Source of the DNA: Nanobdellota archaeon | GTDB taxonomy: Archaea; Nanobdellota; Nanobdellia; Woesearchaeales; GW2011-AR4 | Assembly: GCA_038046385.1 (NCBI GenBank) | Contig: JBBSWH010000018.1 | Span: 1 to 20,054, forward strand | DNA: 20,054 bases | Direction: 5' to 3' | Shown: positions 8,162 to 20,054 of the stretch, in pieces | How the letters are laid out: each line of letters opens with the position of its first letter | Numbering within the stretch: position 1 is the first letter of the stretch | Notes under the pieces: model-generated | Databases searched by the model: none | Told to the model about the DNA's origin: nothing | Seen by the model: the letters and a program-made list of their open reading frames with translations, nothing else | Position numbers and translations under genes: made by a program

Positions 8162-9244
8162 ATGAAAGAGCCTACACTAGATAAAAAAGAGCAGCCAGAC
8201 AAAGAAAGTTATACACATTTTAATCACGAACACAACAGAAAAATTGCATTTAGGCCAGAACACCATAAATTGAAAAAAGCAAGAACATGGCAGATTGTGT
8301 CTGCTGTTTTGGGAATTTTATTGATTGTTTCTTTTTTTACAGGAAACTTTTTTGGGCCAAAGGCATCAGACTCAAACAAAAATATAGTGGCTGATAATAC
8401 TATTAAATATATCAACCAGAACCTTCTGCAGGGAAAAGGGACTGCAACATTAACGAATGTTGAAGAGTCAAATGGGTTATATTATCTTAAACTGAAAATT
8501 AATGGCCAGGAGATGAATTCTTATGTAACTCCAGACGGCAAATTGCTGTTCCCTCAGGCAATAGACTTGACAACAACCCCTCAAATAGAAAGTACACCGC
8601 AAGCTCCATCCAATATTCCTAAATCCAGCAAACCAAAAGTGGAATTGTTTATCATGTCCCATTGCCCTTACGGCACGCAAATCGAAAAAGGGATTATCCC
8701 TGTTGTAAAAGAATTAGGGAACAAAATCGATTTTGAAGTCAAGTTCGTAAACTACGCCATGCACGGAGAGAAAGAGCTGGATGAACAACTGCTGCAATAC
8801 TGCATTCAAAAGGATTATAAAAATAAATATATGGCTTATCTTGCCAAATTCCTTGAAAATGGAGATTCTAAAGAAGCTTTAACTGCTGCAGGGCTAACTG
8901 AAACTGCTTTGGCTAACTGCATTGCTGAAACTGACAAAACCTACAGGGTGACTGAATTATTTAATGATCCGCAAAAGACCATGTGGAGCGGCAGATTTCC
9001 TCCATTCAAAGTTTATGACGCAGAAAACAAAAAATACGGCGTGCAAGGATCACCAACACTTGTAATCAATGGAGAGCAAGCAGACACCGGAAGAGACGCG
9101 CAAAGTCTTCTTGCAGCAATCTGCAGCGCATTTGATGATAAGCCTGCAGAATGCAAAACAGACCTTTCTTCAGCCGGCAACCCGGCCCCGGGATTTGGGT
9201 ATGATACGCAGGGCGGTTCAGCAACAGCCGGATGCGGGGCTTGA
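8162..9244 (+). CDS. Membrane-anchored thioredoxin-fold (DsbA/DsbC-like) protein
   Basis: N-terminal TM helix, YVTPDGKLLF, VELFIMSHCPYG and YGVQGSPTLVING (cis-Pro loop). Confidence 0.8.
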   Translation: MKEPTLDKKEQPDKESYTHFNHEHNRKIAFRPEHHKLKKARTWQIVSAVLGILLIVSFFTGNFFGPKASDSNKNIVADNTIKYINQNLLQGKGTATLTNVEESNGLYYLKLKINGQEMNSYVTPDGKLLFPQAIDLTTTPQIESTPQAPSNIPKSSKPKVELFIMSHCPYGTQIEKGIIPVVKELGNKIDFEVKFVNYAMHGEKELDEQLLQYCIQKDYKNKYMAYLAKFLENGDSKEALTAAGLTETALANCIAETDKTYRVTELFNDPQKTMWSGRFPPFKVYDAENKKYGVQGSPTLVINGEQADTGRDAQSLLAAICSAFDDKPAECKTDLSSAGNPAPGFGYDTQGGSATAGCGA

Positions 9245-9399
9245 AGTTAACAACGGAATTTAACACAGTTTTTTCCATCGAAAATTTCCCCTCGAAGTTT
9301 GAGGCAACCCACAAACTTCAGAGATGGAGAATTTTTCAGAGCTGGCAAAAATTTGGGAGAGCAAGTGCAACGCAGCGAACCGCCTAATTCCTGTTAAGT
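9245..9399 (-). repeat. attC-like site 1 (terminal site of the array)
   Basis: + strand AGTTAAC-AACGGAATT ... ATTTGGGAGAG (9351) ... TAATTCCT-GTTAAGT. Arms pair with a 2-nt bulge; internal hairpins; begins right after stop codon 9244. Confidence 0.75.
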
Positions 9400-9548
9400 T
9401 CGTTTCCCATACGAAGTGTGGGAAACCTGCGTCCGCAGAGTAATTTTTAGTTGCTCGTGTTCTATCAAATGAGCGAAGCGATGCATCAAGAACAAGAATC
9501 AAGGGGGACATTTCGTAGTAGTTGTTAGTGATGGATTGTTCTGCTTAA

Positions 9549-10085: not shown

Positions 10086-10681
10086 TTTCTTGATATCTCC
10101 CTTATGAACTTAATAAATTTTTCCTGCCCGAATAAGATTATCCCTTTCTTTATAGCATCAATAAATATTTTGTTCGGATTTTCAAGCTCCTTTTTCAATT
10201 CTGATTGTGTAAAATTCAATGCATGTATTTTTTTAATCTGTGTCTTCTGTATTTTTTTAAGTGATTCTTCTATTTCCAAAAATTTATTCTTATTAGTTAC
10301 TCCTACAATATCAATGTCATTAGCTTCTTTTGGAGAATGGATAATGCTGCCATAGATCAAGAGGAAGTCCACTTTATTCCTTAATTCCTCAAAATTGCTC
10401 AGCCACCTTTGATTTTTTTGGGCATCTTGGGTTAATGCAAGGGATAATGTCTTTTCTACAATGGGATTTTCCCAGTTCAGGCTTATGCTATTGGCACTTG
10501 TCTTGCCTTCACCTATTGGAGAAAGAGTGAGTAGTTTCTCTGCTTCTAGCTTCTTAAGGATCTTCCACGTTCCTACCCTGCTTAATCCTATTTCTTTAGC
10601 TAAGCCAGTTATGGTTGGATTTATTGTAAAATCCTTTAGCAAGATTTTCAGGATTTTGATGCTTGGCTTTGTTGTTTCCAT
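10082..10681 (-). CDS. wHTH-fused minimal nucleotidyltransferase (MNT antitoxin)
   Basis: TITGLAKEIGLSRVGTWKILKKLE HTH; LIYGS....EANDIDIV Pol-beta motif. Confidence 0.85.
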   Translation of the reverse strand: METTKPSIKILKILLKDFTINPTITGLAKEIGLSRVGTWKILKKLEAEKLLTLSPIGEGKTSANSISLNWENPIVEKTLSLALTQDAQKNQRWLSNFEELRNKVDFLLIYGSIIHSPKEANDIDIVGVTNKNKFLEIEESLKKIQKTQIKKIHALNFTQSELKKELENPNKIFIDAIKKGIILFGQEKFIKFIREISRK

Positions 10682-10684
10682 TTT

Positions 10685-10724
10685 GTTAATAGTTATTAAC
10701 TGATGGTTAATACATGTATTTAAA
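10685..10724 (-). promoter_or_regulatory. Overlapping inverted repeats (putative autorepression operator) and TATA box of the MNT-HEPN operon
   Basis: GTTAATA-GT-TATTAAC (10685-10700) overlapping TATTAAC-TGATG-GTTAATA (10694-10712); minus-strand TTTAAATA at 10717-10724. Confidence 0.55.
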
Positions 10725-10803
10725 GGTTTTGGTTGTTGGCTTGAATAAGAAGAAGGTTAGGGCTATGGCATTTGATGGATAGATAATCGAGCGACTCTTA
10801 TCA

Positions 10804-11037
10804 TTAATTTTCATTTTTTTGAGTATCACTATAGACTATTACACCAATAGCTCCCGCAGTCCACGAAAGAGAATTTTCAATTAGATTCATAACTGCTTCT
10901 GCTTCTTGTAAATGGGTTCTAGCAAATGTTTGATTTTTAGTTTTATATTGGATTGGTACTATTAAAATTCCTATTGCTTTTGGATTTATTTTTTGACCGG
11001 CAGCAATTTTAAGAAAATCGTGAACAACTCGTATAAC
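10804..11037 (-). pseudogene. 5'-truncated gene, possibly the C-terminal half of a BglII/BstYI-like restriction endonuclease
   Basis: 77 open codons VIRVVHDFLKIAAGQKINPKAIGILIVPIQ...AIGVIVYSDTQKNEN* beginning at the GTT of site 2, with no upstream start. Family call is by motif resemblance (D.LK...IGILIVP) only. Confidence 0.65.
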
Positions 11038-11118
11038 AATGGACTTTGGTGAAGTCGCCGAAGGCGATTTGGGTGGAGAAACCCGTAAGGTTTCAGAGTC
11101 GGTTAAGCCCTGTTAAAT
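11031..11118 (-). repeat. attC-like site 2
   Basis: GTATAAC-AATGGACTT..GAAGT-CGCCGAAGGCG-ATTTGGGTGGA-GAAACCCGTAAGGTTTC..TAAGCCCT-GTTAAAT. Confidence 0.8.
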
Positions 11119-11986
11119 GCCCCGACGACCGAAGGGAACCTTACTGTTCACCGGAACAAGGATTTGAGAGATTTATCGTTCTCTTTAGATAAATTTTGAA
11201 GGACCTGAAATATTAGTTCACAATTCGAAGCCCATATGCCTAATAAATGAAGTGAGATCCCCGCGTCCTAGAAGAAGATTCGGCATCTTGATGCTAGTAA
11301 CGTATGCTTCTCTCTCCTTATTGTTATCTTCTCTAACGTAGACTTTGATGAGCATACTGCAGGGGTATTCCTCTTCAGGATTTTTTGAGTCAACCCACGC
11401 ATCACTTGCTTTTTGGATGGCATCTGGGACGTAGTATCCGCTCCCAGAATCATAGAATGAAACCAGCATAGCCCCTTCAGGTGTAGCACTTATGAAATAA
11501 TCATCATGGGAATGCTTCCAGCGGCGACGCAGATCTCCAGAAGCAACTTCCCCGCGCGGATTAATTATTGGAGCCAACAGCCCGGGATAGAATCTTAGTG
11601 AGATGTCATAAGGACTCTCATCTCCTTCATCGGAAAGACTCTCTCTTTTCAAGTACTTAACCTGGATAAACTCTTGAATTTGGATGTTATGAGGAGGATT
11701 TCCACTGTAAAAATGATTCACTCCTTGCGGAAACAGAAGCCAGTACTCGGCGCTTGAGTTATGAAGAACAGCGCCTAATCCAGGCATAGTTTTTAGCGGC
11801 AATTGCTGATGGAGACTTAAGAATTCTTCAATCCCGAGCGCATCAAAACCACCTTCCCTAATTCTTTCCAGAGTCGCATTAAAAGCCTGTGCGATATTAT
11901 TTTCCAAAGGCATACTACTGGGAAGTAATCCTTAGTTTATAACGGTTTTGAAACATCCACCGGATATTGACACGCGAGGTATTTAA
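11037..11986 (-). mobile_element. Gene cassette B (single unknown gene)
   Basis: Ends GTTAAATGCCCCG (11112-11124) and CGAGGTATTTAAC (11975-11987) are complementary with one G-T and one mismatch. Confidence 0.7.
11218..11913 (-). CDS. Hypothetical cassette protein
   Basis: 231-aa ORF filling cassette B; TTATAAA TATA-like box about 23 nt upstream. Confidence 0.8.
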   Translation of the reverse strand: MPLENNIAQAFNATLERIREGGFDALGIEEFLSLHQQLPLKTMPGLGAVLHNSSAEYWLLFPQGVNHFYSGNPPHNIQIQEFIQVKYLKRESLSDEGDESPYDISLRFYPGLLAPIINPRGEVASGDLRRRWKHSHDDYFISATPEGAMLVSFYDSGSGYYVPDAIQKASDAWVDSKNPEEEYPCSMLIKVYVREDNNKEREAYVTSIKMPNLLLGRGDLTSFIRHMGFEL

Positions 11987-12095
11987 CATCGCGGTTTTCT
12001 GAAGTTTTTTGGCGAGGCATCCCACGCCAAAAAATTTGGGAGAGCTACGAACGAGCTTGGCGAGCGAGAAGTGAGCCAGTTAACCGCTGTTAAAT
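11981..12095 (-). repeat. attC-like site 3
   Basis: ATTTAAC-ATCGCGGTT..GAAGT-TTTTTGGCG..CGCCAAAAA-ATTTGGGAGAG..TAACCGCT-GTTAAAT; GCGGTT/AACCGC pair perfectly. Confidence 0.82.
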
Positions 12096-12260
12096 GCCTT
12101 TGCCCTGCGGAGTGGGGCAAAGTTTCGTTCGAAAAGTTCGAAAACCCGCCGTACGTAAATCCCCGTTGTCGCCGCAGCCCCCTCTTAGACTACCACTGGA
12201 CATCTCTGGGCAAGGTTTATAAAGCAGTTCTATATAATATATGAAAATAAAGGAAGGGAT

Positions 12261-13118
12261 ATGCCAAACAATATTTTAAGGGGAATCTTGAATATAGCTT
12301 CATTTAAGAATAATGACCTAAAAGGCTATGCTTCTACTTACTTAAATAGAATCAATGCAGTTGGTGAACAATTAGAATTTTACATTAAAGATGCAATTGC
12401 CTCTTCCTTCAAGCTGCCTCATGAAAAAAAGCAAGAAGCATATTCTAAAGTTTTTGCTTGGCTTGGCAACCAAAACCACCCTCCAGACATTATAATCAAG
12501 AATGGGGACGCTTTTGAGATAAAGAAAATTGAAAGCTTAAAAAGTGCGCTTGCCTTGAATAGCTCTCCGCCAAAAAATAATCTTCTTGCTGATGACATCA
12601 GAATAACAGCTGACTGCAAAAAATGTGATGGTGGAAATTGGAAAGAAAAAGAGTTATTTTACGTTATTGGCAATGCCAAAGGAGGCATTATAAATTACCT
12701 TTTCTTTGTTCATGGCACTTGTTACGCCGCGGATCATGAAGTTTATGAGAAAGTTCACAGCCCAATAAAAAAAGAAGTTGATTTTGTCCTTGATTCTCTT
12801 GGATTGGAAAAGGGCGAAACTGTAGAATTAGGAAAAGTTAAAAGAGTAGACCCTCTTGGAATCACTGAACTAAGAATCAGGGGGATGTGGAGCATAGAAA
12901 ATCCACTTAATGTTTTTGAAGACTTTTGCCAAATTGAAGATAACAAATTTCATTTATTTGCGTTAATAAGGAAAGATAAGTATCTTTCTTATCCTAAAGA
13001 AGACATCAAAGAATTGGAGTCCAATAAGGAAATTTCTGTTAAAGACGTAAAAATTAAAAGCCCAAATAACCCTGCTAATCTAATGGAGGCAAAGCTAATA
13101 GCTTTTACAATAAAATGA
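12261..13118 (+). CDS. Type II restriction endonuclease, NgoPII family (likely GGCC)
   Basis: NRINAVGEQLEFYIKD, LGNQNHPPDIIIKNGDAFEIKKIES, LALNSSPPK, VDPLGITELRIRGMWSIENP; overlaps a C5 MTase gene. Confidence 0.88.
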   Translation: MPNNILRGILNIASFKNNDLKGYASTYLNRINAVGEQLEFYIKDAIASSFKLPHEKKQEAYSKVFAWLGNQNHPPDIIIKNGDAFEIKKIESLKSALALNSSPPKNNLLADDIRITADCKKCDGGNWKEKELFYVIGNAKGGIINYLFFVHGTCYAADHEVYEKVHSPIKKEVDFVLDSLGLEKGETVELGKVKRVDPLGITELRIRGMWSIENPLNVFEDFCQIEDNKFHLFALIRKDKYLSYPKEDIKELESNKEISVKDVKIKSPNNPANLMEAKLIAFTIK

Positions 13119-14155
13119 AAATAGCATCATTTTTTTCAGGAGCCGGAGGATTGGATTTAGGCTTTACTAATGCAGGCTTTAAGCTAGCTTTTGCAAATGA
13201 CAATTGGGAAGGCTGCTGGGAAACTTTTGAAAAAAACCATAAAATACCAATCAATAAAAAATCAATCACCAAAATAAAAGCTGATGAAGTCCCTGATGTT
13301 GTTGGATTTGTTGGCGGGCCGCCTTGCCAAAGCTGGAGCCTTGCCGGGGCGATGAGAGGAATAAATGACCCAAGGGGCAAAGTGTTTTATGACTATGTGA
13401 GGCTAATTAAAGGCAAAAAGCCATTATTCTTTTTAGCTGAAAATGTTGCAGGGCTATTATCGAGCAGCCATTACCCTGAATTTATGAAAATAGTCAATGC
13501 TTTTAAGGGAATTGGATACAATGTTTCATTTAAAATGCTTGATGCAAATGATTATGGCGTTCCACAAGAAAGGAAAAGAGTAATTGTTGTTGGCTACCAT
13601 GAGAAATTAGGAAAAAAGTTTGAGTTTCCAAGCCCATTAAGCCAAAAGCTAACACTAAAAGATGCAATTTCTGATTTGCCAGAGGCCACTCCCGCAAGCC
13701 ATTATAATAAAACAAATGGAAAATTAGATATTTATAACCACGAATACATGAATGGCGGATTTTCTACTATTTATATGTCAAGAAACAGGGTAAGAAACTG
13801 GGATGAGCCTTCATTTACAATTCAAGCAGGCGGCAGGCATGCCCCTTGCCATCCAAAAGCCCCAAAAATGAAGCTAGTTGGGGAAGATAAAAGAGAATTT
13901 ATTAAAGGCAAAGAAAACCTTTATAGAAGATTATCAATAAGAGAATGTGCCAGGATACAAACGTTTCCGGATGATTTTGTATTTCATTATGATAATGTTG
14001 CTGATGGCTACAAGATGATTGGAAATGCTGTCCCTGTTAGATTGGCTGAAGCGCTGGCAAAGCAGATTATGAAAGACCTTAAAGAAATAAAAACCCAAGA
14101 AAAATGGCAGACAAATTTAGCAAGGCAAAAAGAAGCGCAATTATGTCTAGAATAA
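13115..14155 (+). CDS. dcm: DNA cytosine-5 methyltransferase (M.HaeIII/M.NgoPII-like)
   Basis: FSGAGG, GGPPCQSWS, ENV, QERKRV, TRD FSTIYMSRNRVR.WDEPSFTIQAGGRH, YKMIGNAVP. Confidence 0.96.
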   Translation: MKIASFFSGAGGLDLGFTNAGFKLAFANDNWEGCWETFEKNHKIPINKKSITKIKADEVPDVVGFVGGPPCQSWSLAGAMRGINDPRGKVFYDYVRLIKGKKPLFFLAENVAGLLSSSHYPEFMKIVNAFKGIGYNVSFKMLDANDYGVPQERKRVIVVGYHEKLGKKFEFPSPLSQKLTLKDAISDLPEATPASHYNKTNGKLDIYNHEYMNGGFSTIYMSRNRVRNWDEPSFTIQAGGRHAPCHPKAPKMKLVGEDKREFIKGKENLYRRLSIRECARIQTFPDDFVFHYDNVADGYKMIGNAVPVRLAEALAKQIMKDLKEIKTQEKWQTNLARQKEAQLCLE

Positions 14156-16211: not shown

Positions 16212-16327
16212 AAATACTGGAGGTCTTTAACAGTTTAAATTATTTACTATTATTTATCGCACTAAGTAGGTGACAACATAAAGGGGATTTACGTTTTAGT
16301 ATCAGGGTAGGCGGGTTTTCGAATTGC

Positions 16328-16466
16328 ATTTAACATCGGCGTTTGGCGAAGTTTCTAGGGCGTGCTTTAAAGCAAGGCTAGGGAGTTGCGAAGCAAAAAT
16401 TTGGGTGGAGTGGAGTTCGGCTACGAAGTGGACGAACGGAACGTAACCTCATAATTCCTGTTAGCC
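16328..16466 (-). repeat. attC-like site 4
   Basis: ATTTAAC-ATCGGCGTTTGGCGAAGT...ATTTGGGTGGAG (16399)...TAATTCCT-GTTAGCC. Confidence 0.82.
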
Positions 16467-16558
16467 GACCGAGCCTACGAAGTGGGCGAGGCTTGAGTTT
16501 TCTTACTGCCGAGAATCAGATAGGTGCCGTAGTTTTTACTTACTTTAATATCAATAAC

Positions 16559-17513
16559 TGCGAAGCAGAGTATTGTTTAGAGAGAGCTTTTTTTATCGAA
16601 ATCTTGATTGTTATTTATGTATTCGTTTGAATAATTTTTCAATATTAACCATGACATTATCAATATGTTTTTTAAGTAGTTTAACTATTAGGTATCTTCC
16701 AATAGCAATTATTACAATTGTAAAAAATACGTATGACCATTTAAATGAATAACTAAAAGCCACTCCTGGTTTATAATAATTTAATGTATTTTGAGACATG
16801 GATTCATCTAGAAGAGATTTATCATAAGATAGAATTAGTTGCCCATCAAGGTAATCTTCATTTGCTGGCTTTGATATAATGGGATTATAACTTCTTTTAA
16901 ATAAAAAACATTCTGGCAAAATTAGATTTATTTTCCTTATTCTGTTATCTAGCATGATGGTTTCGAAGGTAAATTGCTTTTTACCATCAATTTTTTTTAC
17001 ATAGTCTTTAACTTCATATGCAGTAATTAGATAAAACTCATTGAAAGGGGGAATTTTAGTATTAGAAATGTCCAATATATAATAATTGAAAGCATCATCA
17101 TTGTAGTAATAAAATTGATTTGAACGATCAATTTGGTTATTGTCTATGGATTTAATTAACTGTGAATTCAATATTTTATTTACACCAAAGGTATAATAGT
17201 TTTCTTTCAAGTCTAGTATAGAATTATTATAATTAGGTATATGGAAATGTCTTGTTACAGTTATATCGTTAGAGAAGCAATGTAATTTAAGTTCTATGTC
17301 AGTAAATGATTTGATGTCGTTAATTCCTGCAGATGAAAAACTAGATAATAAAAGGATGAATATGATTAAACTGATGATTGTTTTCATTATATAATGGATT
17401 GTTTAGTTATATATAAAACATTTGATACTCTATTAACTGTTCTGAACTAATTAATTTATTAAAGGAAAATAATCTTTAATAAATCATTGCGAAGCAGACT
17501 AGTGTTTAGAGAG
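16559..17513. repeat. 26-bp imperfect direct repeats flanking the 258-aa gene
   Basis: TGCGAAGCAGAGTATTGTTTAGAGAG (16559-16584) vs TGCGAAGCAGACTAGTGTTTAGAGAG (17488-17513), 24/26 identical. Confidence 0.8.
16611..17387 (-). CDS. Exported protein with signal peptide and C-terminal TM anchor, function unknown
   Basis: MKTIISLIIFILLLSSFSSA signal-like N-terminus; YVFFTIVIIAIGRYLIV TM followed by a basic tail. Confidence 0.8.
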   Translation of the reverse strand: MKTIISLIIFILLLSSFSSAGINDIKSFTDIELKLHCFSNDITVTRHFHIPNYNNSILDLKENYYTFGVNKILNSQLIKSIDNNQIDRSNQFYYYNDDAFNYYILDISNTKIPPFNEFYLITAYEVKDYVKKIDGKKQFTFETIMLDNRIRKINLILPECFLFKRSYNPIISKPANEDYLDGQLILSYDKSLLDESMSQNTLNYYKPGVAFSYSFKWSYVFFTIVIIAIGRYLIVKLLKKHIDNVMVNIEKLFKRIHK

Positions 17514-17687
17514 GGGGCTGTTTTTGGTTCTTTTTCTGAAAAAGAAAATTTATGCTAGGACATTAGGGAGTGATTCAAACGTCCTAACTCACTAAGTAGT
17601 AGATTGGTAATCTACCGAGTTTGACAACTTCTCTACCCCAGTATATTAGATATGAGAATAAATAATTAATTTGAAATATTTTAACAT

Positions 17688-18176
17688 TTAAAATTTTTGT
17701 TCAAATAGCTCATCTAGTAAGTCATATATTGATTTAAAGTCCTTAAACTTTTTAGGCTTTTTGATGCACTTCTGTAAAGAACTCTTGTCTAGGTTTCTAA
17801 TTTCTTCAATTAGTTGCCTACTTAAATTAGGTTTTTTATCTCTATACACTTTTCTTGTTTTATGACAATCCAAGAAACCTTCAAAATTTTCTTCACTAAA
17901 ATAGATATAATTTTTATGTTCTTTAATTTCATCAGTTATCTTCTTTTGATTCTTGAAAGTGTCTGAATCGTAAACATAAACTATTATTACAGATAAGCCT
18001 TTTAAAAATTTTGATTTTCTTATGGCATTCACTATATCATTTGTTTTAGAATTGGGCTTTAATACATAATTATTTGAGATTATTTTGTTACCCTTTAATG
18101 CTTCAAAATAGTTTTTTTCAGAATCCCCTTCACAATATATGTGAACTATTTTTTTACTCATTCTCTTTATATACAT
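17688..18176 (-). CDS. RloB/AbiLii-like (TOPRIM-like) protein
   Basis: IYCEGDSEKNYF, YVYDSD and SEENFE motifs; overlaps the ATPase gene (start probably ATG 18161). Confidence 0.8.
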   Translation of the reverse strand: MYIKRMSKKIVHIYCEGDSEKNYFEALKGNKIISNNYVLKPNSKTNDIVNAIRKSKFLKGLSVIIVYVYDSDTFKNQKKITDEIKEHKNYIYFSEENFEGFLDCHKTRKVYRDKKPNLSRQLIEEIRNLDKSSLQKCIKKPKKFKDFKSIYDLLDELFEQKF

Positions 18177-19383: not shown

Positions 19384-19578
19384 CTAGTATTTAAATGTTT
19401 GCATTTTATTCATTATTTTCCTGTTTTCTTTTAAAAAATAATGGAAAATGAGAAAATAAGTCTTTTTTTAAACTTATTTTATTTTTAGAGCAACGAAATT
19501 GTGAGTATATATGTGCGTAGTGCCAGCCCCCTCTCAGTCTAAAGTAAGTAAAAATTTGGGTGAAGCGAAGCGTAACCG

Positions 19579-19890
19579 TTAAACTAATGTTAGAAAAATT
19601 CCTCTTACATTCTTCACTGCTTGAGTGATTAGTGCAGATATTAGAGAACTGATTGCTCCACCAATATACCCATAAATTAATGTTATAATCTGCTGTGAAA
19701 GTAAATCTGCGAAAGCTGAGTCTCCAGAAGCAGCAACTGTTACCGTCTTAAGTGAAAACATAATCAAAGGAACTGCACCAGCTACACCTGCAACCGTTCT
19801 AAGATCTTTAACTATCTTATTTGAAAAAGCAAAACCGAGTCCAGCACTACCTAATATATCAATAATTAATACAAATACATCAATTTCCAT
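19579..19890 (-). CDS. Small three-TM membrane protein
   Basis: 103 aa hydrophobic; stop codon lies inside GTTTAAC. Confidence 0.75.
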   Translation of the reverse strand: MEIDVFVLIIDILGSAGLGFAFSNKIVKDLRTVAGVAGAVPLIMFSLKTVTVAASGDSAFADLLSQQIITLIYGYIGGAISSLISALITQAVKNVRGIFLTLV

Positions 19891-19996
19891 ATATAACAGG
19901 AAATAGTTACACTTTTTATTTTTTTCTACAGTTTAACGAAGGCACCTATCTAAAGGATTCGAGGTTTACCGACGGAGGAGGCAGTAAGAAAATTTT

Positions 19997-20054
19997 GGCT
20001 AACATCGGAATTTGGCGAAGTCGTTTAAGTTCCGCAGAACATTAAATGATTTGG
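19997..20054 (-). repeat. attC-like site 5 (cut by window end)
   Basis: GGCTAAC-ATCGGAATTTGGCGAAGT-CGTTTAAGTTCCGCAGAACATTAAATG-ATTTGG. Confidence 0.8.

Follow-up and report, generated by a model that had tools for sequence, protein, structure and literature searches.

We find that the right half (9.2-20 kb) of the window, as we call the whole 20,054-nucleotide stretch from a Nanobdellota archaeon analysed here, is an integron-like gene-cassette array on a Woesearchaeota (DPANN) chromosome, and that the second of its six related plus-strand sites adjoins a nuclease-gene remnant truncated at the site's left core. The best explanation, to which we assign a probability of about 0.6, is that a recombinase deletion in this Woesearchaeota cassette array brought the core of site 2 together with a GTTA inside a BamHI-like nuclease gene. 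The family and fold of the truncated protein can be recognized, the core complementarity normally found between neighbouring sites has been lost at this point, and the polarity of the array, together with the region in which its units cross over, can be read from related loci. The coordinates of the features discussed are collected in the table.

Table. Features of the cassette array and of the remnant next to site 2; entries beginning with L are loci of related genomes.
Feature	Coordinates	Strand	Remarks
Site 1	9243..9401	+	Last of array; 2 bases past the stop of a 360-aa housekeeping-side gene; right flank AGTTC, without a partner at site 2
Extension right of the site 1 right core	9397..9530	+	...AAACCTGCGTCCGCAGAGTAA...; common to relatives
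Other copies of the extension	L034:8740-8900; L036:8365-8520; L035:8737-8950
Overlapping genes, 199 aa and 178 aa	9549..10681	minus	In the unit of the remnant; same pair in 6 relatives
Nuclease-gene remnant, 77 codons + TAA, without start	10804..11037	minus	From frame reading, homology and fold
Left core TAACA of site 2	11034..11038	+	Junction of site and gene DNA; AAC at 11035-11037 is the minus-strand GTT
Site 2	11029..11120	+	5-base flank, TAACA, bulge AT, L arm, GAA-loop hairpins, L arm, TGTTA at 11111-11115, flank AATGC
231-aa ORF	11218..11913	minus	Belongs to the unit of site 2; without Pfam match
Site 3	11979..12097	+	Best folder, DNA fold z -6.0 on the plus strand
Site 4	16326..16468	+	Left and right L arms pair poorly
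Site 5	19492..19590	+	Decayed: left core GCAAC, right core TGTTAG
Site 6, left arm	19995..20054	+	Ends at contig end; preceding cassette end common with genome G354
GTTA-bearing internal stretch of the nuclease family			...GTTAAACG... or GTTATACG
dif-like unit borders in relatives	L053:795-815; L053:2265-2285; L054:2340-2375

On the minus strand the remnant reads GTT-ATA-CGA... from the GTT at 11035-11037 through 77 sense codons to the TAA at 10804-10806. A preliminary description of this DNA had noted these codons and the lack of a start codon before them, and our reading of the minus strand with its start codons and open reading frames bears out both. It had also placed the beginning of the gene exactly at the GTT, which applies to the homology described below and not to the frame itself: the frame is open past the GTT, extending 25 codons further into site 2 as far as a TAA at 11113-11115 within the right core, so that "beginning at the GTT" does not refer to a stop codon. 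These 25 codons include no ATG, GTG or TTG, none occurs ahead of Met50, the first Met would give only 28 aa, and the ORF listing of the window contains no ORF of at least 40 aa in the remnant's frame. When the remnant's 234 bases were shuffled, 23 of 20000 shuffles gave 77 stop-free codons. The remnant is a pseudogene.

Searching 1.84 billion representative sequences with the remnant peptide (phmmer) returned seven matches at E<=0.001. Six are proteins of 176-313 aa, to whose extreme C-terminus residues 2-70 or 2-73 of the query align (in one homolog of 295 aa, for example, the aligned part is 227-294), and the seventh is a fragment of 53 aa with 78% identity. Three further full-length family members came from a second search, and all are metagenomic. 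We built a profile (A3) from nine full-length homologs, leaving out the window's own row. Of its 271 positions, 197-269 align with the read-through (102 residues) at residues 23-95, with E 3.8e-38, while positions 1-196 have no match in it. V1 of the 77-aa peptide is residue 26 of the read-through, which puts the onset of homology at most 3 residues from the GTT; the K-S-I preceding V1 is coded by the L arm and bulge of site 2, and since these residues derive from the site's own DNA we take the aligned K there to be chance. Protein homology resolves the break to about 3 codons at best, and it is within V1 +/- 3 residues that the proposed start at the GTT stands. The peptide thus has homologs, as the preliminary description had anticipated, and the homology sets in mid-protein at V1 and ends at the site. 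The full-length homologs begin ~100-240 residues upstream of V1 and not at the internal Met, which disposes of the case that would have spoken against a truncation.

The remnant is the C-terminal quarter to third of a member of a rare family with a BamHI/OkrAI-like fold. An AF2 model of the homolog P0005 (pLDDT 88.6) gave OkrAI, BamHI, BglII and BstYI as best Foldseek matches in the PDB (OkrAI 3odh, E 1.7e-5, TM 0.58; BamHI 1bhm, TM 0.59), and this fold bears out the earlier label "restriction-endonuclease-like". The elements of the model are H50-68, E70-78, E86-93, E98-103, H108-124 and E127-134, and the full-length homologs have the alpha-beta-beta-beta-alpha-beta core of PD-(D/E)xK enzymes with acidic residues on strands 2 and 3. 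D88, E102, E104 and K105, invariant in the family, lie just upstream of the break, which falls in the homologs at an E-V-K-R directly after the catalytic ExE(K). The remnant begins at the equivalent of residue 108, so it lacks the catalytic strands (three core strands are gone) and retains the final helix-strand-helix-strand; the catalytic core upstream is present in all six long homologs. The family is alike in fold to BamHI, OkrAI, BglII and BstYI, and its acidic D...E-x-E resembles the acidic motif of BamHI, but its sequence identity to these enzymes is 10-15% and the window copy is without the catalytic part.

The three long homologs that we scanned matched no Pfam or NCBIfam family. Among 400 other genomes of the order the family profile had no match, and its sole match in the genome of the window, which is 85% complete, was the remnant; a metagenome scan with the peptide gave no relative. 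Three candidate similarities of the peptide were discarded: a genome-scan match to a histidine kinase, which has only the words VMNLIENS in common with it and is not a relative; a match at E 0.004 among solved structures searched by sequence; and a sub-threshold Pfam match to Sugar_transport. The last two we judged to be chance.

At the junction, 20 of 24 bases of site 2, counted rightwards from TAACA, are the same in the site 6 left arm, and leftwards of the same TAACA the homology to the nuclease family starts. Position 11037 is bridged by Logan contigs from two other samples, one covering 10563-11083 with 1 other letter (X3 record 5) and one, from a separate study, covering 10301-11080 with 0 other letters (X4 record 12); a third, X7 record 27, reaches only 23 bases beyond the junction and was not counted, and X5 gives no cover of 10776-10997. 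Because the junction recurs in contigs of two other samples, misassembly is excluded. The 5-base flank of the site 1 right TGTTA complements that of the next left TAACA, of site 2, at 0/5 positions, and the other three site pairs of the window score 4/5, 5/5 and 4/5, both imperfect pairs being T·G on the plus strand; the remark that this is the only cassette with mismatched cores is therefore accurate. The locus has the features of a secondary-site scar, in that the junction lies at a core, the target carries the core triplet, an unrelated gene is truncated and the normal partner is lost.

The description of the sites draws on 87 motif hits from the window and the fetched loci and on a comparison of 37 neighbour pairs. 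In the consensus, xxxxx-TAACA is followed by a bulge of 2 bases (mostly TC), an L stem of 11 bp, hairpins that often carry GAA loops, the returning L arm and TGTTA-xxxxx, and the bulge directly after the left TAACA is the sole constant unpaired feature. The 30 distinct 11-bp L stems comprise 330 positions, of which 296 form Watson-Crick pairs, 16 G·T pairs on the plus strand and 2 A·C pairs, and compensatory variants are numerous. The sites thus have, like those of integrons, inverted AAC/GTT cores and paired L boxes that can fold as a single strand. They also have daisy-chained cores, compared as the first bases of a cassette against the inner core of its own site: complementarity of at least 4/5 was found in 24/37 neighbour pairs against 7/37 same-site controls, and the only pair at 0/5 is that of sites 1 and 2. 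The 13/37 pairs that complement poorly, and the 3 of 9 orphan cores described below that do so, may in some cases reflect sites missed by the search pattern. Among 401 sampled genomes of the order, 121 (3 of them unpublished) contain the left-arm site motif TAACATCGG..TTT..CGAAGT, and the reversed control pattern is rare.

Several further features of the sites and the array were noted. To the right of many right cores lies an extension of ~130-230 bases that is 85-100% conserved though the adjacent genes differ; it may belong to the site, act as a terminator or be an RNA. In relatives, some units are bordered by short dif-like sites with two inverted cores 8-13 bases apart and no L stems. Mini-hairpins with GAA loops, a stable motif, occur on the plus strand at 11055-11070, 16383-16390, 19565-19575 and 9474-9482 (e.g. 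GCGAAGC, CGCCGAAGGCG). In a hybrid site (L040:3076-3170) the left arm is of one subtype, and the right half with 230 bases beyond is 100% identical to L035:8649-8740, of another subtype; exchange inside sites thus also occurs, and the arrays are reshaped by other recombination too. No Rfam family reached its gathering score in the window and none reached E<=1 in 17400-17760; ARAGORN called no tRNA in the window.

For the polarity of the array we compared 16 regions fetched from 12 genomes. Core complementarity and ORF direction do not discriminate between the two orientations of an array, and neither was used. With the sites read as plus, a gene for a XerA-like recombinase (252-296 aa) lies to their right, on the plus strand, in 9/16 regions (9/12 genomes), and in none to their left; in a tenth region (L046) an integrase-like ORF stands at a distance on the opposite strand. 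All nine loci carry an orphan TAACA(C/T) 33-235 bases before the recombinase start, after which the sequence is unlike a site arm (6-12 identities in 22) and contains a different inverted repeat in at least 6 loci. The 5-base flank of the orphan fits the right core of the last full site at 5/5 in 4 loci and at 4/5 in 2, with no match in 3. This is the arrangement of an integron, where a distinct attI near the integrase has only the crossover core in common with the attC sites. We note as a candidate attI the orphan TAACA(C/T) with its inverted repeat, e.g. CTATTAAACGAA...TTCGTTTAATAG, ahead of the recombinase (G000 C1:1-991, which is L002, and L034-L049). Between the window (19933-20006) and genome G354 the sequences are nearly identical through TAACATC and then part into the site 6 arm in one and a recombinase-side hairpin in the other, and three blocks of between-genome homology each extend to the right from a left TAACA.

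The position of the recombinase, the orphan left cores and the cassette end common with G354 together point to units being joined in the left TAACA(TC). As read from these sequences, each mobile unit begins with the C of a left core and extends to the right as far as the TAA of the following one, a crossover within the left TAACA (minus strand G|TTA) is supported, and new units would enter at the right-hand end, beside the XerA-like recombinase. The suggestion that the crossover lies at the left AA|C of each site is upheld as to the left TAACA; since GTTA is common to site and gene, the exchange is placed within TAACA(TC) and not at a single bond G|TT. The minus orientation of the array, proposed at the same time, agrees with the recombinase gene standing to the right of the sites in 9/9 loci, with the orphan left cores and with the G354 comparison. 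The same three observations led us to reject a crossover in the right core (a plus-oriented array), which the bulge on the plus-strand 5' arm had first suggested. A crossover in the centre of the site, suggested by the hybrid at L040:3076 and by the poor L pairing in sites 1, 2 and 4, was rejected as a general rule because the L arms within one site covary in relatives. The plus strand would be the one that acts as a folded single strand, and the 16:2 excess of G·T together with the GAA-loop (purine-loop) mini-hairpins on that strand fits this. The plus strand had been equated with the folded "bottom" strand of integron sites; the 16 G·T against 2 A·C in 30 L stems favours the folding, and the analogy itself is inexact because the bulge lies beside the crossover core, on the arm opposite to that in attC. 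In classical attC sites the extrahelical bases belong to the L'' arm and not to the arm with the R' box at which the bottom strand is cleaved (PMC5027507); those of the present sites are not so placed.

The window contig (C18) ends inside site 6 and carries no recombinase gene. Contig C1 of the same genome starts ...TTTTAACAT... 150 bases ahead of a gene for a 271-aa XerA-like protein (C1:176-991), followed by an Lhr-type helicase gene, and the array recombinase of G354 has the same Lhr-type neighbour; by synteny it is likely that C18 joins C1, with the recombinase beyond site 6. This candidate scores 198.2 bits against the integron integrase model TIGR02249 (cut-off 265), in two stretches. 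Likewise none of the recombinases of 5 relatives is above the cut-off, and they match positions 5-179 and 237-315 of the model with 7-11 codons between; a two-piece match so spaced means that the IntI-specific insertion, the additional domain around patch III, is absent. The enzyme at work was thus probably not an integron integrase, as had been supposed, but a XerA-like recombinase of ~270 aa, to judge from these sequence comparisons. Nor do the genes follow the integron pattern of mostly promoter-less ORFs that face one way and are read from a common promoter, since both strands of the window and of the relatives carry ORFs. The array works like an integron yet departs from one in two defining respects.

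The unit in which the remnant lies also contains the overlapping 199-aa and 178-aa genes. The 199-aa protein has matches to wHTH and DUF6932, both sub-threshold, and the pair would be toxin-antitoxin-like. In 6 relatives the pair has 67-86% DNA identity to that of the window, and in all six the homology stops near window position 10737. The two-gene unit of L053 opens with TGTTAAGTTCG, as at site 1, and the units of L053 and L054 (2 of the 4 loci inspected) close with TTGAACTTAA(A/C), the exact partner of the TGTTAAGTTCG core; the natural end of the unit in relatives reads GAACT-TAA. The window has no unit end of the TTGAACTTAA type and has instead 67 bases, the remnant, the flank TCGTA and the site 2 core. 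Between the gene pair and the remnant (10741-10765) lies CTTGAATAAGAAGAAGGTTAGGGC, which resembles a decayed short site (compare TTGAACTTAA-ATTTG-GTTAAAAG in L053); if that site is real, the remnant came from a separate unit.

In the sequence of events that we propose, the nuclease gene would originally have stood upstream of the 199-aa/178-aa pair, and the recombinase would have joined the site 2 core to a look-alike GTTA inside it; the E-V-K-R of the homologs at the target position can be spelled GTTAARC. The event would most likely have been an intramolecular deletion, in which the 5' part of the gene and the natural end of the unit were lost and the two downstream genes would have kept their own upstream region. 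The preliminary description had likewise held that site 2 recombined into a GTT of the gene and removed its 5' part, and the truncation at the core agrees with this. It had also suggested looking for the missing 5' half elsewhere in the genome, where the family profile recovers the remnant only. The 5' half, a reciprocal product and a pre-event allele were sought in the window's own genome (85% complete), the 400 genomes of the order and the metagenome and genome scans, and none was found; because the 5' half is missing from all of these, deletion as the form of the event is something that we infer, as is the recombinase as its agent.

A deletion could also have arisen without the enzyme, by slippage or illegitimate recombination between the TGTTA of the site and the GTTA of the gene, the coincidence with the core then being microhomology. 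The partners do have 4-5 bases in common, and the hybrid sites attest to non-canonical exchange in these arrays, but we consider this account unlikely: the endpoint falls on the same 5-7 bases that join units in 9/9 recombinase-linked loci and in the comparison of the window with G354, and at 36% GC such microhomologies are so ubiquitous that a random one would not be expected to land on a core. Alternatively, the same enzyme may have acted in another way, inserting a block through a secondary site or opening a circle at the GTTA of the gene, with the 5' half lost later. The junction would look identical, and relatives do gain units at varied places. An insertion, however, predicts a 5' half beyond the inserted block or beyond site 1, and extra steps would be needed. 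A normal site 3, its flank paired with that of site 2, stands to the right of the neighbouring unit, and the 360-aa housekeeping-side gene ends 2 bases left of site 1; we regard such an event as rather improbable.

It is very improbable that the frame functions as a short gene for the C-terminal domain alone, starting in an unusual way, or that the junction is an assembly artefact. Its 77 codons are still stop-free and the identical allele is present in samples from different years, but no ATG, GTG or TTG precedes Met50, the six long homologs all have the catalytic core upstream whereas the remnant has lost three core strands, and independent contigs span the junction.

We noted defence-type cargo in the arrays, namely an NgoPII-like restriction-modification system with Vsr, GmrSD_N with a RiboL-PSP HEPN protein, and AAA_21 with RloB. 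A methyltransferase/endonuclease operon (12816-14051) is 75% identical to that of G354 (L040:1039-2271) and inverted relative to the sites, so the orientation of cargo in the arrays is not fixed. The stretch at 17560-17650 (minus strand) is conserved in genome G006 (L043:3370-3455), beside RloB/AAA_21 genes; ARAGORN calls the G006 copy as an 86-base long-arm tRNA with anticodon ACC, and leaves uncalled the window copy, the T arm of which looks decayed. A 35-base direct repeat, 86% identical (...TGCGAAGCAGA..TGTTTAGAGAG), at 16550-16584 and 17479-17513 flanks a 258-aa ORF (16611-17387) and may mark a separate small insertion within the unit between sites 4 and 6.

As a pseudogene the scar is minor, but as a marker of the cleavage position and of target tolerance it is of modest use. 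Together with the orphan cores and the one cassette end that has two partners, it indicates the place of exchange, the direction of growth and the probable folding strand, and so adds new, modest natural evidence on the cut position and direction of a little-known recombination system. It also suggests that such platforms can cause off-target damage to genes, here that of a restriction enzyme, which would be one route of defence-island turnover in archaea with tiny genomes. A wider reading, which we hold tentatively and rate nearly as probable as its contrary, is that the arrays are an undescribed class of cassette platform, widespread in Woesearchaeota, with a plain XerA-like recombinase lacking the IntI insertion, that exchange takes place in TAACA next to the 2-base bulge, on the folded plus strand's 5' arm, and that the remnant is an off-target footprint of it. 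If so, the integron-specific domain and the classical extrahelical bases would be dispensable for integron-style cassette capture, and the scar would be a first pointer to the cleavage position and target tolerance of the XerA-like enzyme.

Sedentary chromosomal integrons such as the Vibrio cholerae superintegron have site bodies that are alike within a lineage, daisy-chained cores, and toxin-antitoxin and defence cargo. The present array is likewise chromosomal, with lineage-alike site bodies, complementary cores and toxin-antitoxin/defence cargo, and differs in having ORFs on both strands, units of up to 4-7 kb that are operons, an 11-bp L stem, a bulge of 2 bases next to the crossover core and a conserved extension of ~200 bases after the right core. 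Another class of mobile units comprises the Xer/dif modules, known from archaeal XerA/dif and from the pdif modules of Acinetobacter plasmids. The arrays resemble these in their plain Xer-family recombinase and in the short dif-like unit borders of some relatives, whereas most sites here are folds of 80-190 bases with covarying stems, and the units are stacked beside a dedicated recombinase gene.

Early work on IntI1 secondary sites is said to be that of Francia (1993) and Recchia (1994). Off-target recombination by IntI1 at GTT/GNT secondary sites, leading to rearrangements, is documented (PMC10127599). The remnant resembles the cases given there in that a short core look-alike in unrelated DNA serves as partner of a structured site or attI, the junction lies at the conserved triplet and genes can be cut or rearranged (PMC10127599); here, however, the array is archaeal, the probable enzyme is without the IntI domain, and the scar is a fixed natural one and not an experiment. 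In the literature searched on integrons of Woesearchaeota and on DPANN tyrosine-recombinase cassettes, we found no description of this type of array. Archaeal integrons were reported in 75 of 6718 genomes, with six IntIs that all have the additional domain (Ghaly et al. 2022; PMC9668308). Those arrays, as that survey describes them, are like the present one in being folded, attC-type and mostly without a detected integrase, in archaeal MAGs that include DPANN/Nanoarchaeota carriers (PMC9668308). Set against that account, the site motif here is found in 121/401 genomes of a single order, and the linked recombinase is Xer-like.
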